From: Myxococcota bacterium
GTDB lineage: Bacteria > Myxococcota_A > UBA9160 > JAFDDA01
Assembly (NCBI GenBank): GCA_965228475.1
Contig: OZ245817.1
Coordinates: 4,544,001 to 4,608,000, forward strand
Length of the DNA stretch: 64,000 nt
Direction: 5' to 3'
In this document: positions 30,272 to 34,466 of the stretch, piece after piece
How positions within the stretch are numbered: position 1 is the stretch's first letter
How the letters are laid out: each line of letters starts with the position of its first letter
Made by a program: the position numbers and the translations under genes
The notes under the pieces: model-generated
What the model saw: only the letters and a program-made list of their open reading frames with translations
What the model was told of the DNA's origin: nothing
Database searches by the model: none

Positions 30272-31414
30272 CTAGCGGCCGGCCAGGGCCAGAACGCCGG
30301 TGTACGTGAGCAGCTCCGTCGCGCCGCAGACCGGGCCGATCTCGTAGGCGCCGTGCATTCCGACGAGGGGCAGCTTGCCGAAGCGCTCTTCGAGGTAGGC
30401 GGCCTCGAGGCCCGGCACACCGAACAGGGCCGCGCCGCGCGCGCAGCAGTCGAGGTAGAGGCCGAAGTCCGCCGGGCCGGCGAGCGCTTTCAACATGCGT
30501 TTCAGATCTTCGCGCGCGCCGTGGGGTTCGCGCAGAACCAGGGCCGCGCGGTCGCCCGCCCGGACCGGCTCGGGCGAAGCGATCCCGCGCCGGGCCTCCG
30601 GGTCGAAGCCGACGACGTTGCGCACCCGGTAGTGGCCCGCGCGCAGCGCCGCGTCGGCGTCCTCCCCCTCGGGCCACGCCAGCAACACGAAGGCCGAGGC
30701 GCGACGGAGATCCTCGGCGAGCGGGCCGCGAGCGGCCTCGGTGAAGACGTCGAGGGCCGGGCGGCCATCGAGCTCGAGGATCCAGTGGCCGTCGGCGCGC
30801 GTCACCGTCATCGCGTCCGTCACGGGCTGGCAGGCCTGCGTCACGCCGGCGCGGAAACCCGCCCCGCCGCGAAGAATCATCCCCGCCACCGCGCCCTCGG
30901 CGGTCTCCCCTTCCGCCCAGCACGGCCCTTCGAAGGCACCTGCCCCGACGACGAGCGCATCGCCGCAGGCGGGCACGAGGGAGCCGAGCAGCGCCTCCGG
31001 CGAGACGGCCAGGCCATCCGGGAACAGCACGACGAGGTCTTCCCGGCGGAGGGGCGCCTCGAGGTAGTGGGCGAAGCGCTCGCCGGCGGACGCTTCGCGG
31101 CCGGCGACGTCGGCCAGCAGGAACGGCTCGGGGTCCCAACCCGAGAGCGCGAGCACCGAGACCCCGGCACCGCCCTCCTGGGCATCCCCGCCGACGAGGA
31201 CGCCCTGCGAACTCGCACCGACCGGCGCCACCCCGAGCACCCGCTCCGCCTCGGCCACCATCGAGGGCATGGCGGCAGCGTGGGCCGCGGTCGCGAACAG
31301 CAGCGCGCCGACGGGACGCTCGCAGGCGGCCTCGGCCATGGCCGTGGCGCACGCCTCGCGCACCGCGCGTTCGGGGTTCGACTCCCGCGATAGACCGGCA
31401 CCTGCCTGCAGCAT
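30272..31414 (-). CDS. FIST N/C domain signal-transduction protein
   Basis: GVTQACQPV, VTRADGHWILELDGRPA, DCCARG, GMHGAYEIGP. Confidence 0.85.
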   Translation of the reverse strand: MLQAGAGLSRESNPERAVREACATAMAEAACERPVGALLFATAAHAAAMPSMVAEAERVLGVAPVGASSQGVLVGGDAQEGGAGVSVLALSGWDPEPFLLADVAGREASAGERFAHYLEAPLRREDLVVLFPDGLAVSPEALLGSLVPACGDALVVGAGAFEGPCWAEGETAEGAVAGMILRGGAGFRAGVTQACQPVTDAMTVTRADGHWILELDGRPALDVFTEAARGPLAEDLRRASAFVLLAWPEGEDADAALRAGHYRVRNVVGFDPEARRGIASPEPVRAGDRAALVLREPHGAREDLKRMLKALAGPADFGLYLDCCARGAALFGVPGLEAAYLEERFGKLPLVGMHGAYEIGPVCGATELLTYTGVLALAGR

Positions 31415-31689
31415 CGTCGAAGGATAGGACCTACCCGGGTACCCCCCAGGGGAATTCCGCCGAACTTTCTTGGCAGACAGTCGCCTGCGACGCCGGACCC
31501 CCGGTTTGCGCGGCGTTTCCTCCGCCGCTCGGCTAGAGTCGGCCTGCGGCCACGCGGAAACCCGTGTGGCATCCCCCCCACGCTAGTCTGCGACCCGTTC
31601 CGACTACGGCGGTCCCGGGTCGGGCCTTGGTGCATCCGTGCGGGGTGCATGGCTTTGGGCGCCCGAAGCGGGCGCATTGAGAGGAAGCG

Positions 31690-32853
31690 TTGGCGGACTA
31701 CGAGCTCATCGAGAAGGCGGCCGACCTCCGGGCGCTGTGCCGCCACCTCGAGAAGGAGCGCGTCGTCGCCTTCGACACCGAAGCCGACAGCTTCTACCAC
31801 TACTTCGACAAGACCTGCCTGATCCAGGTCGCGGACCGCAAGACCCACTGGCTGATCGACCCGCTCGCTCTCGGCGGCACGACCGAACTCGCGCCCCTGG
31901 CGCCGGTCTTCGCTTCGCCGGACGTGCGCAAGGTCTTCCACGCCGCCGAGTACGACATCTACATCTTGAAGCGCGACTTCGGCTTCGAGTTCATGAACCT
32001 GTTCGACACGATGGTGAGTGCGCAGCTCCTCGGCTACCCGTCGGTGGGCCTCGCCGCCATCGCCGAGCGACACTTCGACGTGTCGCTCCCGAAGGACGAG
32101 CAGCGTTCGGACTGGTCCGTGCGTCCGCTGACCGACAGCCAGCTCTCCTACGCCGCTTCGGACGTCGAGTACCTGATCCGCCTCGCCGACAAGCTCGAGC
32201 GCGAGCTTCGCAAGGCGAAGCGCCTGAACTGGGCGCAGGAGGAATTCGCGGCCCTGACGCGGCGGGCGTGGCCCGCACGCGAGTTCGACAAGCTCGGCTA
32301 CCTGAAGATCAAGGGCGCACGCGGGCTCGACCCCCAGAGCATGGCCGTGCTGCGCGAGCTCTACCTCCTGCGGGACGCCCGCGCGCGCAAGCTCGACCGC
32401 CCGCCCTTCAAGGTGCTCGGCAACCGCGCGCTGCTCGAGATCGCCCAGCGGCAGCCGGAAGGCGAGGAAGAGCTCGGCCGCATCAAGGGCGTGACGGATC
32501 TGATCCTTCGCCGCATGGGGCGCGACCTGGTCGCGGCGGTGGCCAAGGGCGCCAAGAAGACCCACGGCCCGATCCCGAAGACGGCCGGCGGCTCGCGGCG
32601 CCGCATGGACCGGCGCACCGAGCGCCGGCTCGCGGTGCTGAAGAAGTGGCGCGGCGAGAAGGCGACCGCGATGGCCATGGACCCGGGCGTCTTCGCGCCG
32701 AACTCCGCGCTCGAGGCGATCGCCTGGAAGAACCCGGACGCCGTGGAGGAGTTGACCGAGCTCCCGGAGCTCAAGGGCTGGTTCGTGCGGGATTTCGGCG
32801 CCGAGGTCGTGGCGGCGCTCCATGCGGGCTCGAAGACGGAAGAGTCGAGCTAG
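31690..32853 (+). CDS. rnd: Ribonuclease D (DEDD exonuclease + HRDC)
   Basis: AFDTEADSFYHY..CLIQ, KVFHAAEYD, FDTMVSAQLLG, SDWSVRPL...YAASDV, RDARARKLDRPPFKVL; TTG start after GAGG. Confidence 0.93.
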   Translation: MADYELIEKAADLRALCRHLEKERVVAFDTEADSFYHYFDKTCLIQVADRKTHWLIDPLALGGTTELAPLAPVFASPDVRKVFHAAEYDIYILKRDFGFEFMNLFDTMVSAQLLGYPSVGLAAIAERHFDVSLPKDEQRSDWSVRPLTDSQLSYAASDVEYLIRLADKLERELRKAKRLNWAQEEFAALTRRAWPAREFDKLGYLKIKGARGLDPQSMAVLRELYLLRDARARKLDRPPFKVLGNRALLEIAQRQPEGEEELGRIKGVTDLILRRMGRDLVAAVAKGAKKTHGPIPKTAGGSRRRMDRRTERRLAVLKKWRGEKATAMAMDPGVFAPNSALEAIAWKNPDAVEELTELPELKGWFVRDFGAEVVAALHAGSKTEESS

Positions 32854-32906
32854 CCGCCGCCCCCGCGAAGGGGTCGCCAGAGGCTGGAAGTGGCCGGGGG
32901 GCCTGG

Positions 32907-32942
32907 AAAAACGATGCCCCCCGGAGTACGTCTCCGGGGGGC
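32907..32942 (-). terminator. Intrinsic terminator of the putative sRNA
   Basis: Perfect 11-bp stem GCCCCCCGGAG/CTCCGGGGGGC (32916-32942), followed on the minus strand by ATCG-TTTTT. Confidence 0.8.
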
Positions 32943-33093
32943 GATGCGATTCGGTGCGCTGAAAGCCTCGAGAAGGCGGGGTGCCGTTCTGGGGGAAGGC
33001 GCCTATGTGTCTGGTCTCGAAACCTCCAGCGCGGGGATCAACCGATGAGCGCGCCCTCGTCATCAACCGATCCCATGCCGTATCGCACTCGAA
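32907..33093 (-). ncRNA. Putative sigma54-dependent small regulatory RNA (~185 nt)
   Basis: Bounded by a sigma54 promoter and a terminator; 15-bp and 18-bp helices each with 4 G-U pairs that form only on the minus strand; C-rich loop. Confidence 0.7.
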
Positions 33094-33103
33094 TCGGTAC
33101 TAG

Positions 33104-33120
33104 AGCAGGCTTCGTGCCAA
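33104..33120 (-). promoter_or_regulatory. Sigma54 (RpoN) -24/-12 promoter
   Basis: TTGGCACGAAGCCTGCT versus consensus TGGCACG-N4-TTGCW: correct GG-to-GC spacing, one mismatch. Confidence 0.8.
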
Positions 33121-33284
33121 CTCGCACCAAACCGGCAAGTCGCCGCATTCGTTGGCCTTTCCGAGATTCTGGGGGTTCAGGGAGGCGCCGCCTGGGGTGG
33201 CAGCCTGCCGGGCCCCTGAGGCCGTCTCCAGCGCTTGTGGAGCTTTCTCAACGATTCCGGGGCGTTGGCTGGGGGCCTCCGCGG

Positions 33285-34466
33285 GTGGCCCTGCCGCCGA
33301 AGGGTGCACCCTGGCTGGCTCTGATGCTCTTCCTCGTGGCCGTTCCCGCCGAGGCGAGCTGGGTCGTCCAGCGGGGCGAGCCGCCGAGTTCACAGGAGCG
33401 GTATTGCGCCTGGTTCGCGGCCCCGGCCGGCGACGTCCTCTACTTCGGGGAGGCCGCCTTCTGGACGGCCTTCCGCTCCCAGGGCAAGGACCCGCGCGGC
33501 GACCTCCGGGCGAGCGGCCCACAACGCATCGGCCGGCTCGGGCTCGCCGACGAAGCGCTGCTCGATCCGATCGACGTGACCCAGCCCGGCGCCCGCTCGG
33601 GCATCTGGGACGTGCTTCCCCACCCGAACGGCCGCGTCTACTTCACGACCTTCTTCGAGGAGTCCGGCTGGGCCGACCCGGCGACCGGCGCCCACGAGCG
33701 CATGCCCGCCGTCGGCCTCGGGCTCTCGGAGCTCGCGCTCGCCTCCGACGGGGATCTCGTCGCCGCCCGGTACGGACGGCCGGGAAAGACCGACGGGAGC
33801 CTCGTGCGGTTCTCACCGGAGGGCGAGCTCCTCGCGGAGTGGCCCATGAAGCCGACCCGCGGGTTCCGCGTCGCGCCGAAGAGCGTGGCGTACGACCCCG
33901 TTCGCAAGGAGACCTGGGCGCTGACGGATCTGCTCCCGGAGGCGGGGGACGGCGTCATCTCCCATGACGCGCGCATCCATGACGCAAAGGGGCGCGAGCG
34001 GCTCCGCATCACGGACCCGGAGATCCAGTTCGCCGTCTTCACGCCGGAGGGCACGGGCTACCTGGCCGAAGTCGAGGGCTCCTCTCTCTACCTGAGAATT
34101 CTGGCCCCGGGCGATGCGGCCCGGCCGACCCGCCGAGGCGAGCGGCTCCTGCTCGATGCCGGCTTCCCTTCGGGCTTCGACTTCCTCCAGGACCTCCACG
34201 TCGCGGCCGACGGGCGCCTGGTCGCGACGCGCTGGAGCGGCTGGGTCCACGTCGTGCACCCGGACCGGCGCGTCGAGACGATCCGCATGCCCCGGCTCGA
34301 CGACGAGGGCCTCTACTACTCGGCCGTGGTCCGGGAGGACCGCGTCTGCGCGACCTACTGCTCGGAGGTGACGGTCGTTTGTCGCGCAGCCGACAGTTTC
34401 GACGCCGCGCCCGAGGGCCCGGCCCAGCCGGAGGCCAAAGCCCCGCCGGAGAAGCCGGCGGAATGA
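33285..34466 (+). CDS. Hypothetical secreted beta-propeller-like protein (start uncertain)
   Basis: Signal-like PWLALMLFLVAVPAEA; repeated blades such as PNGRVYFT, DGDLVAA, FSPEGELL, FTPEGTGY, ADGRLVAT. Confidence 0.7.
   Translation: MALPPKGAPWLALMLFLVAVPAEASWVVQRGEPPSSQERYCAWFAAPAGDVLYFGEAAFWTAFRSQGKDPRGDLRASGPQRIGRLGLADEALLDPIDVTQPGARSGIWDVLPHPNGRVYFTTFFEESGWADPATGAHERMPAVGLGLSELALASDGDLVAARYGRPGKTDGSLVRFSPEGELLAEWPMKPTRGFRVAPKSVAYDPVRKETWALTDLLPEAGDGVISHDARIHDAKGRERLRITDPEIQFAVFTPEGTGYLAEVEGSSLYLRILAPGDAARPTRRGERLLLDAGFPSGFDFLQDLHVAADGRLVATRWSGWVHVVHPDRRVETIRMPRLDDEGLYYSAVVREDRVCATYCSEVTVVCRAADSFDAAPEGPAQPEAKAPPEKPAE

Follow-up and report, generated by a model that had tools for sequence, protein, structure and literature searches.

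Does the intergenic region that follows the RNase D gene in this myxococcotal genome encode an RNA and, if so, how might that RNA be controlled and what might it do? The window, by which we mean the whole 64,000-nucleotide stretch of DNA analyzed here, contains rnd at 31690..32853 on the plus strand, with the Pfam domains DNA_pol_A_exo1 and HRDC and with TIGR01388 rnd as the best NCBIfam match, under the cut-off. The next plus-strand gene, delineated at 33285..34466 by third-position GC (GC3) frame analysis and translation, has an uncertain start and encodes a protein with a signal peptide that matches nothing in Pfam or NCBIfam and belongs to no known family. Between the two, a first-pass annotation made from the letters alone had seen no credible protein gene and had proposed a sigma-54-driven, highly structured small RNA (sRNA) on the minus strand. 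Third-position GC analysis agrees that the region between rnd and the gene near 33285 is non-coding, and the long minus-strand ORF 30877..33066 lacks the coding GC3 pattern. With near certainty, we predict from the sequence that a real sigma-54-dependent non-coding RNA gene is located here.

Structure and distribution of the RNA

The predicted transcript, ~187 nt in length, occupies 32907..33093 on the minus strand, with the start at ~33093 placed from the spacing to the −24/−12 promoter element and the 3′ end placed at the U5 tail of the terminator. All elements listed in the first-pass annotation are present in the sequence at their assigned positions. The MFE fold of the minus strand from 33093 to 32907 reaches −97.7 kcal/mol, compared with −69.8 ± 4.2 kcal/mol for dinucleotide shuffles (n = 200), none of which folded as well (z = −6.69), so that the suggested comparison with shuffled sequence came out in favor of a structured RNA.

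The architecture, as read from the folds and from an alignment of 85 distinct sequences, is a three-way junction of ~150 nt followed by a terminator. The junction is closed by stem P1 (5′ arm 33078..33088, 3′ arm 32944..32954, minus strand) and carries two further helices, P2 and P3. P2 (33034..33074, minus strand) is a 15-bp hairpin with arms 33074-33060/33048-33034, four consecutive G-U/U-G pairs, and the loop motif GGGCGCG at 33056-33050. P3 (32956..33032, minus strand) is an 18-bp helix with arms 33032-33015/32973-32956 and four G-U pairs, which bears the conserved apical core and is capped by an AGGC(G)/(C)GCCU stem around CCUUCCCCC. The closing stem, 15-bp hairpin, 18-bp helix, and AGGCG/CGCCU stem that had been drawn by inspection are all found in the MFE fold, and independent MFE folds of 28 homologues, read by eye, recover P2 and P3 and, in most cases, the closing stem as well.

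The prediction of a stand-alone structured RNA gene on the minus strand is backed by covariation in the three main helices among 85 distinct homologues. In alignments (A4 and A5) that were fitted to the model structure, so that pairing counts are favored, compensatory changes were observed in 10/10 pairs of P1, 15/15 of P2, and 18/18 of P3, that is, in all 43 pairs of these helices, and in 48 of 53 pairs overall; paired cells amounted to 86.7%, compared with 63.5% in shuffles and 33–44% when the partners were slid. Covariation was also computed on a set of 34 sequences. RNAalifold, applied to a plain MAFFT alignment of the 28 homologues, missed the variable helices because these were misaligned, and suggested that the P2 loop GGGCGCGC pairs over a long range with the core segment GCGCYUUCCC. 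We did not adopt this pairing, which involves only invariant columns and is disfavored both by family f9, where the core is kept without the loop motif, and by one locus (L096), where the core GCGC has changed to GCAA with the loop unchanged. For the inner fold of the core, G96-C118, within the 5-bp AGGCG/CGCCU stem, and G96-C113, present in the MFE fold, are equally compatible, with a single A-U compensatory case favoring the former.

In the conserved core AGGCGCCUUCCCCCAGAACGGCACCCCGCCU (32974..33004, minus strand), delimited with BLAST and a list of variants, a variable linker rich in A joins the 5′ module GGCGCYUUCCCC to the 3′ module GGCACCCCGCC. The core is 90–97% identical across families in BLAST comparisons, and the best-conserved part of the RNA is its C-rich stretch UUUCCCC(C); GCGCYUUYCCC is present in 70 of the 85 sequences, and the adjoining linker varies in length. 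By hand count, the P2 loop includes GGGCGCG in 81 of the 85 sequences, and in the remaining four the loop differs or is absent. The parts of the RNA are separable, given that P2 is missing from the f9 RNAs, which keep the core, and that the C-rich core is missing from three divergent hits, in which the rest of the RNA is kept.

A covariance model of the RNA matched 117 of the 151 genomes of the order to which the window belongs, always once per genome, and the positives span all 12 families and 58 of the 65 genera. No match was found in the 4 genomes of the sister order or in the 123 genomes from the rest of the phylum sample (127 genomes outside the order in all). The order, labelled Myxococcota, is uncultured and known only from metagenome-assembled genomes. 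A search of the whole window against Rfam 15 (4227 models, including 6S) produced no match at the gathering score, and in the segment 32600-33500, at E ≤ 10, only seven chance-level matches appeared, with 13–20 bits against cut-offs of 35–70. The novelty of the RNA, which a hit to a family such as 6S would have removed, therefore stands. Judging from these searches, this is a previously undescribed RNA family, confined to one order in the samples searched. As an uncatalogued family it is unusually well supported from sequence alone, with the promoter, putative enhancer sites, three covarying helices, terminator, and synteny conserved across the order, and its covariance model is ready for annotation use.

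Promoter, putative enhancer sites, and genomic setting

The predicted sigma-54 promoter, TTGGCACGAAGCCTGCT, with GG at −24 and GC at −12, is located at 33104..33120 on the minus strand and is conserved in relatives. The pattern TGGCAY-N6-TGN is found directly 5′ of the RNA in 82 of the 85 distinct loci, in keeping with the original promoter assignment; TGGCA is invariant, the −12 position reads TGC in 67 of the 82 promoters, and the distance from the promoter to the start of the model is 18–33 nt, with 42 nt in one locus.

A motif search upstream of the promoter identified TGC-N11-GCA dyads in 64 of 82 loci, clustering at about −104 (−110..−100) and about −197 (−200). Enrichment is seen only at a spacing of 11, with 38 sites over 28 upstream regions where downstream controls have 1 and shuffles 2.7. 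In the window, the distal dyad TGCACCCTTCGGCGGCA (33292..33308, minus strand) overlaps the divergent gene at its presumed 5′ end, and the proximal one, TGCCACCCCAGGCGGCG (33186..33202, minus strand), which was assigned by eye about −83 from TGGCAC, is imperfect, ending in G rather than A; another locus of the same family (L003) has a perfect dyad at −81, and in most other loci the site is near −104. We read these dyads as putative enhancer sites, typical of those bound by enhancer-binding proteins (EBPs). The genome encodes one rpoN (a single Sigma54_DBD match) and has 27 matches to Sigma54_activat, of which 21 reach E ≤ 1e-46. The proposal that an EBP controls the RNA is supported at the sequence level, with conserved upstream dyads and the requisite sigma factor and ~21 activators all encoded.

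None of the 27 activator matches falls within the window, and candidates were sought elsewhere in the genome. Membership in the NtrC nitrogen regulon (amtB/glnK/GS-linked) was rejected because the sRNA dyads are of a different site type: four sigma-54-like promoters near P-II or GS genes, placed by coordinate, are accompanied by TGC(C/A)C-N7-(G/A)GGCA-type sites, arranged in three of the four cases as pairs ~20 bp apart, whereas the sRNA sites follow the consensus TGC[AC]NC-N5-GN[GT]GCA, seldom have C at position 5 (3/38), and are separated by ~93 bp. A genome-wide scan detected no other sigma-54 promoter preceded by dyads of the sRNA type. In a tree of 110 activators, drawn from three RNA-positive and three RNA-negative genomes, two candidate orthogroups emerged. 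Orthogroup B, found in no more than 21 of the 151 genomes, was set aside. The best profile candidate is orthogroup A (G000 4964273-4965679), whose association with the RNA is imperfect: of the 151 genomes, 84 have both the RNA and this EBP, 33 the RNA only, 8 the EBP only, and 26 neither. With genomes that are related to one another, a Fisher test on these counts does not yield a true probability.

At the other end of the gene, the MFE fold contains the annotated intrinsic terminator (32907..32942, minus strand), with an 11-bp GC stem (32942-32916), a 5-nt loop, and a U5 tail ending at 32907. Of 83 loci, 66 have a terminator-like hairpin with a T-run, and several of the 17 misses have a hairpin with a weak T-run. 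The hairpin lies 54–89 nt past the stop codon of rnd, which is convergent with the RNA, and no second terminator for rnd is visible in the window sequence. In all 28 other loci tested, the downstream ORF is likewise a convergent RNase D gene, and none of these loci has a same-strand gene downstream, so the RNA is not a leader. On the upstream side, a divergent gene occupies the homologous position in most loci, with pepP as the upstream neighbor in some.

Possible modes of action

The RNA is probably regulatory. The best reading of the combined analysis is a new family of activator/sigma-54-controlled, trans-acting sRNAs with a C-rich apical loop, functionally similar to Pxr or Qrr, an explanation that, as a whole, we hold with middling confidence. 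Under this scenario, an NtrC-family EBP would bind the two TGC-N11-GCA dyads, ~100 and ~200 bp upstream, and switch on the sigma-54 promoter; transcription would stop at the intrinsic terminator hairpin, tail-to-tail with the RNase D gene; and the transcript would form a three-way junction in which P1 closes the structure, P2 presents GGGCGCG, and P3 presents the apical loop GGCGCYUUCCCC(C)-A-rich-GGCACCCCGCC. The RNA would act in trans, without Hfq, and the C-rich loop, perhaps together with the P2 loop, would pair with G-rich mRNA segments, for example, ribosome-binding sites, as other C-rich-loop sRNAs do, apparently including stem-loop 1 of Pxr. The regulatory input would be defined by a TGC-N11-GCA-binding activator and sigma-54, and the output motif by the C-rich loop, in a lineage without a known regulatory RNA.

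The predicted unpaired probability of the C-run and the following A is 0.67–0.98 in 28 sequences with the canonical core, which fits, without proving, the idea that this segment pairs with Shine-Dalgarno regions. Searches for complementary targets gave no clear answer. Ranking of whole-core duplexes over ~2,765 candidate start regions was noisy, with no convincing target; exact core complements of 10–13 nt were scattered and mostly intragenic; the perfect complement of the 12-mer seed, with the sRNA gene itself excluded, occurred 24 times in 151 genomes, compared with 32 for a reversed-pattern control (hand count); and G-rich complements at start codons were not more common than control purine motifs. 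The best candidate target close to a ribosome-binding site belongs to a multi-copy exported protein (G000 597971), with complementarity kept only within the genus. No Hfq was found in the genome. Of the original interpretation, then, the structured RNA gene, the promoter, the dyads, and the lack of an Rfam identity stand, whereas its predicted targets did not rise above controls, and for trans base-pairing through the C-rich loop as such the chances appear evenly balanced.

The difficulty with targets is one of several observations that would be accommodated if the RNA instead served a protein partner, whether as sponge, decoy, or scaffold, with the GGGCGCG loop and the GGCGCYUUCCCC and GGCACCCCGCC modules displayed as recognition sites on a rigid junction. 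Two separate motifs, both containing GGCGC, remain nearly constant over the order while the sequence of every helix turns over, and an RNA of ~190 nt with a junction is more elaborate than most seed-type sRNAs. Each motif, however, occurs once per RNA, unlike in sponges of the CsrB/RsmZ or CrcZ type, f9 has lost the P2 motif and yet keeps the core, and no protein of the neighborhood co-varies with the RNA. The genome has one CsrA gene, and a CsrA sponge was specifically considered and rejected: the conserved loops, read by eye, contain no GGA, which makes CsrA an unlikely partner. On balance, we regard protein binding as rather unlikely.

The constant proximity of rnd raises another alternative, which we judge improbable, namely, that the RNA is tied to RNase D, either being matured by it in the manner of Pxr-XL or exerting cis control on rnd, whether by way of convergent transcription and a shared terminator hairpin or by overlap with a read-through 3′ end of rnd. 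Such a tie would suit the convergent arrangement in all 28 loci, the hairpin 54 nt past the rnd stop codon with no other rnd terminator in sight, and the processing of the sigma-54-dependent sRNA Pxr by RNase D reported in Myxococcus xanthus (PMC10217877). Nevertheless, the whole block of rnd, hypothetical gene, and pepP is syntenic, so that the two genes may simply have been inherited side by side; the RNA lies outside the rnd coding region; core complementarity to rnd start regions does not exceed background; and pxr (MXAN_1078-1080) and rnd (MXAN_5981) are reported to be unlinked in M. xanthus (PMC10217877, PMC5568312). Finally, it is hardly credible that the region is a DNA-level feature (a repeat element or sites bound by a protein) or that it is a leader or riboswitch controlling a downstream gene in cis: palindromic hairpins would form in DNA too, and the plus strand of the region also beats its shuffles (z = −4.54), but there is one copy per genome and no same-strand gene downstream, only the minus-strand reading tolerates the G-U pairs, as the first-pass annotation had argued, and the replacements of G-C by G-U, and the promoter and T-tail match that strand in nearly all loci.

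Comparison with known regulatory RNAs

Several known RNAs share some of the features of the new family. Like 6S RNA, it is of similar length, highly structured, and single-copy; its three-way junction differs from the 6S rod with a central bubble, and sigma-54 control is, to our knowledge, not a feature of 6S. Other sigma-54-dependent sRNAs, namely, GlmY, CrcZ/CrcY, and NrsZ, none of which is known from Myxococcota, resemble it in having a promoter of this class, with activator sites upstream, for a non-coding RNA. GlmY and CrcZ are protein decoys with repeated motifs, whereas the new RNA has no such repeats, and the Rfam library, which includes such families, was unmatched. Closer in logic are the Qrr RNAs of Vibrio, controlled by LuxO and sigma-54, in which, as far as the abstracts describe them, an NtrC-family activator likewise drives an sRNA that acts in trans and contains a long single-stranded stretch of invariant sequence; the shared logic is that of a single activator with an RNA as its output. 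Qrr RNAs are ~100 nt long, Hfq-dependent, and often multicopy, according in part to the same abstracts, whereas the new RNA is single-copy, occurs in a genome with no Hfq found, and differs in sequence, fold, and phylum.

The closest parallels are with Pxr (RF01812) of Myxococcus and related Cystobacterineae, also a small RNA of hosts labelled as myxobacteria. Pxr is reported to be transcribed from a sigma-54 promoter, with an NtrC-like activator acting through an enhancer region upstream of it (PMC5684412, PMC5568312), comparable to the promoter and dyads found here. Stem-loop 1 of Pxr is described as functionally essential, with a C-to-A change in its loop inactivating the RNA (PMC5684412); in 11 metagenomic pxr loci this loop reads UUCCCCC, compared with UUUCCCC(C) in the new RNA. 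The host lacks a detected hfq in both cases, M. xanthus being reported to be without Hfq (PMC5684412), and both RNAs have a link to RNase D, through experimentally demonstrated processing for Pxr and through gene adjacency here.

The differences are equally clear. Neither model detects the loci of the other: RF01812, which as a positive control recovered metagenomic pxr loci with 125, 129, and 91 bits, had no match at E ≤ 1 in the whole genome and none in the 151 genomes of the order, and 11 pxr loci searched with our covariance model R2 yielded nothing at E < 0.01. None of 401 genomes of the phylum sample was matched by the published Pxr probe, so that this sample holds no detectable pxr and is uninformative on Myxococcus itself; in the samples searched, the distributions of the two RNAs do not overlap. 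Pxr is 108 nt long and folds into three tandem stem-loops, compared with ~187 nt and a three-way junction for the new RNA; the activator gene pxrR/nla19 immediately precedes pxr, whereas the new RNA has no activator gene nearby; and TGC-N11-GCA occurs in none of the 11 pxr upstream regions. The shared sigma-54 promoter and C-rich loop are a resemblance in kind and do not indicate homology.

It is distinctly improbable that the new RNA, under sigma-54/NtrC-type control, is the counterpart in a deep uncultured lineage of the Pxr checkpoint known from fruiting myxobacteria, with its C-rich loop gating a starvation or lifestyle switch and its maturation depending on RNase D. Were this so, it would explain why the tail-to-tail position of rnd is kept across the whole order, and the module of sRNA and RNase D would be more ancient and more widespread than is implied by the 'recent origin in Cystobacterineae' now assumed for Pxr. 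If the parallels are coincidental, the new family is one more lineage-specific sRNA. The combination of sigma-54 control, a C-rich loop, no Hfq, and a link to RNase D poses the testable question of whether RNase D-dependent maturation of sigma-54 sRNAs is a theme general to myxobacteria.

Fold and genomic setting of the RNA gene

The first-pass annotation had proposed a sigma-54-driven, highly structured small RNA on the minus strand, and its elements are borne out: the promoter TTGGCACGAAGCCTGCT lies at 33120-33104, and an 11-bp terminator stem with a U5 tail ends the predicted ~187-nt transcript (33093..32907) at 32907. The minimum-free-energy (MFE) fold of this transcript is a three-way junction that contains each of the proposed helices, namely, the closing stem P1 (33088-33078/32954-32944), the 15-bp hairpin P2 (33074-33060/33048-33034), and the 18-bp helix P3 (33032-33015/32973-32956), with four G-U pairs each in P2 and P3, and a short stem around CCUUCCCCC on top of P3. 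The fold energy is -97.7 kcal/mol, compared with -69.8 +/- 4.2 kcal/mol after dinucleotide shuffling (z = -6.69); for the plus strand, z = -4.54. As had been claimed, the unit contains no credible protein gene: judging by third-position GC, it lies within ~430 nt of noncoding DNA flanked by two genes of the plus strand: rnd, for RNase D (31690-32853), and one whose product has a signal peptide and belongs to no known family (start near 33285, to 34466). A 729-aa open frame on the minus strand (30877-33066), antisense to rnd and reaching the RNA region, lacks a coding GC3 pattern and was dismissed as a shadow ORF of the sort common in GC-rich DNA.

Wherever a downstream gene could be called (28 tested loci), it is a convergent RNase D gene, which means that the RNA is not a leader. 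The upstream neighbor is the family-less secreted protein or, where this is missing, pepP. The secreted protein, encoded divergently in the window (33285-34466, plus strand), is a conserved signal-peptide protein of ~390-430 aa in most loci, with no Pfam or NCBIfam family and, in one homolog, a weak DUF5122 beta-propeller match. The terminator hairpin lies 54 nt beyond the rnd stop codon, and the window sequence shows no second terminator that could serve rnd. At the other end of rnd, the 5' regions of several loci (L028, L047, L046, L020, L021, L009, and L026) carry a run of about six C residues ~20-45 nt before the start codon and then a GAGG-like ribosome-binding site; in the window, the rnd leader (~31620-31690) has GGGCGCCCGAAGCGGGCGC in place of the C-run, an echo of the P2-loop motif of the RNA. 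These motifs could represent a leader element of rnd.

Covariation, conserved motifs and distribution

When 28 homologs were folded separately, the P2 and P3 hairpins recurred although the helix sequences differ, and the closing stem, by inspection, recurred in most of the MFE folds. Covariation, counted on 85 distinct sequences aligned to a covariance model, revealed compensatory changes at 10/10 pairs of P1, 15/15 of P2, and 18/18 of P3. Standard pairs were formed in 86.7% of the cells, compared with 63.5% in column shuffles (0/500 reaching the observed value) and 33-44% when partners were slid by 1-3 columns; compensatory double changes were found at 48/53 pairs, compared with a shuffled mean of 41.5 (again 0/500) and 27-33 for slid partners. 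Fitting the alignment to the model favors pairing; nevertheless, the controls with slid partners and the separately computed folds lead us to regard the pairing signal as real.

Two single-stranded elements are conserved, the P2 loop, whose last residues are GGGCGCG in 81/85 sequences (a hand count from the variant list), and the P3 apex, which reads (A)AGGCGC-UUUCCCC(C), followed by an A-rich linker of variable length and GGCACCCCGCC(U). The canonical 29-mer of the apex is kept in only 28/85 sequences and its 5' module, GCGCYUUYCCC, in 70/85; in the 28 canonical sequences, the predicted probability of being unpaired is 0.67-0.98 for the C-run and the A after it. Reduced versions exist as well: in family f9 (L016, L018, and L019), the P2 hairpin or its GGGCGCG loop is missing and the core is retained, and three divergent matches (L108, L113, and L117) retain P1-P3 and have lost the C-rich apex.

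A BLAST search with a 261-nt region produced matches in the genomes of 23 of 41 relatives, with a ~30-nt core that is 90-97% identical even between families, and a single copy was found in the window's own genome (G000). The strict core pattern occurs in 27 species of the genome collection, all represented by metagenome-assembled genomes and labeled mostly as Myxococcota or delta proteobacterium, with one plain Proteobacteria and a few Spirochaet*. A covariance model, built in two rounds (from the window sequence and its fold, and then from 34 aligned matches), had exactly one match in each of 117 genomes among the 151 taken from the window's order, covering 12/12 families and 58/65 genera, although counts over related genomes are not independent. 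The misses gather in a few genera (for instance, 0/6 in g9), and some may be false negatives with weak scores, given the stricter filters. In a phylum-wide sample, 18/24 genomes of the same order were positive, compared with 0/4 in the sister order and 0/123 in the rest of the phylum, a sample that does not speak for Myxococcus because no pxr, the gene of a Myxococcus sRNA, is detectable in it. No Rfam family matches the RNA, and full-text searches of the literature on sigma-54 small RNAs in Myxococcota and on Pxr/Myxococcus sRNAs found no description of such an RNA.

Promoter, upstream dyads and candidate activators

The promoter motif TGGCAY-N6-TGN is located 18-33 nt upstream of the model start in 82/85 loci (at 42 nt in one), with TGGCA invariant and TGC as the -12 triplet in 67/82; the three misses comprise one TCGGCACG, one locus whose promoter was taken into the alignment itself, and one next to a run of N. 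Downstream, a hairpin followed by a T-run was found in 66/83 loci. Farther upstream, TGC-N11-GCA dyads are enriched, with 38 sites across 28 upstream 300-nt regions, compared with 1 in downstream control regions and 2.7 in shuffles; the enrichment is strong only at spacing 11, with spacings of 9, 10, 12, and 13 giving 2-7 sites. Dyads are present in 64/82 loci, clustered ~104 and ~197 nt upstream of TGGCAC; in the window, the distal dyad TGCACCCTTCGGCGGCA is at 33308-33292 and an imperfect proximal one at 33202-33186, both on the minus strand. In layout, these dyads are similar to TGCACC-N5-GGTGCA, the classical NtrC site. The distal dyad overlaps the presumed 5' end of the divergent gene (33285-34466, plus strand), and hence the two genes may be coregulated. 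Collectively, comparison of the sequences establishes a single-copy gene for a structured RNA with a predicted sigma-54 promoter, enhancer-like dyads, a terminator, and conserved, apparently exposed motifs.

G000 encodes one rpoN and ~21 strong activators, none of them inside the window. Membership of the RNA in a nitrogen regulon was rejected because the sigma-54 promoters near P-II/glutamine-synthetase genes of G000 use a different site, TGC(C/A)C-N7-(G/A)GGCA, mostly paired ~20 bp apart. Four such sigma-54-like promoters, all outside the window (3789697(+), 3842650(+), 4850651(-), and 4844948(-)), three of which carry the dyads as pairs ~20 bp apart, probably constitute the NtrC nitrogen regulon of this organism. 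A comparison of 110 activators, drawn from three genomes with the RNA and three without it, singled out two G000 orthogroups, A and B, with close relatives in the RNA-positive genomes only. Orthogroup B was rejected, being present in only 21/151 genomes of the order; its protein has a degenerate N-terminal domain and is encoded by one of two divergent activator genes (3853348(+) and 3854725(-)) ~10 kb from a glutamine-synthetase-like gene. Orthogroup A, a REC-AAA+-HTH response regulator (4964273-4965679) with a paralog at 147673-149058, separates cleanly (68-79% identity among orthologs, 51% or less for paralogs). It is present in 84 and absent from 33 of the RNA-positive genomes of the order, and present in 8 and absent from 26 of the RNA-negative ones; because several nearly complete genomes have the RNA without A, and because the genomes are not independent, orthogroup A is a lead rather than an identification.

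Mode of action and comparison with Pxr

In the mechanism we favor, an NtrC-family activator would turn the gene on in response to a signal, and the RNA would then work in trans, with its C-rich loop acting on G-rich mRNA segments. Duplex ranking of targets was noisy in this 70% GC genome. Exact complements of the 12-mer seed outside the RNA gene were not commoner than the reversed control in the 151 genomes (24 vs. 32 matches), G-rich complements had no preference for start codons, and the best candidate near a ribosome-binding site was kept only within the genus. Since these searches yielded no convincing targets, the RNA may plausibly have a protein-binding role or a functional link to rnd. 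A multicopy family of ~440-aa exported proteins (G000 597971-599302, with paralogs at 557063, 1227239, 2909551, and 3287667) carries UUCCCAGGGGGA(A) ~75-110 nt upstream of the start in three relatives (L231, L234, and L236) and CUGGGGGAA at the ribosome-binding site in G000 and a second genome, G001.

A comparable known system is Pxr of Myxococcus, described as a 108-nt RNA of three stem-loops, the loop of stem-loop 1 being essential; its sigma-54 promoter is controlled by the NtrC-like PxrR, its host reportedly lacks hfq, and pxr, which adjoins pxrR, is given as restricted to Cystobacterineae (PMC5684412, PMC5568312). Pxr-XL is reportedly converted to Pxr-L by RNase D (PMC10217877), and a 2025 account gives the Pxr targets as still unknown (PMC11928866). 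RF01812, the Rfam model of Pxr, scored 91-129 bits on 11 metagenomic pxr loci retrieved with a published probe (positive control) and had no match in the window or in G000; conversely, our model had no match with E < 0.01 on these loci, and TGC-N11-GCA was found upstream of pxr in 0/11. On this evidence, the two RNAs are not detectably homologous, and their predicted activator sites are different. One metagenome contig (L221) carries three tandem RF01812 matches (325-435, 606-714, and 931-1019), which fits the tandem pxr paralogs reported for Cystobacter (PMC5568312). Both RNAs have the same kind of promoter, a hairpin loop of the UUCCCCC type, a host lacking Hfq (no Hfq was found in the window's genome), and a connection to RNase D. 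The RNA of the window belongs to a known kind, the activator/sigma-54-controlled sRNAs, and forms a new family within it.
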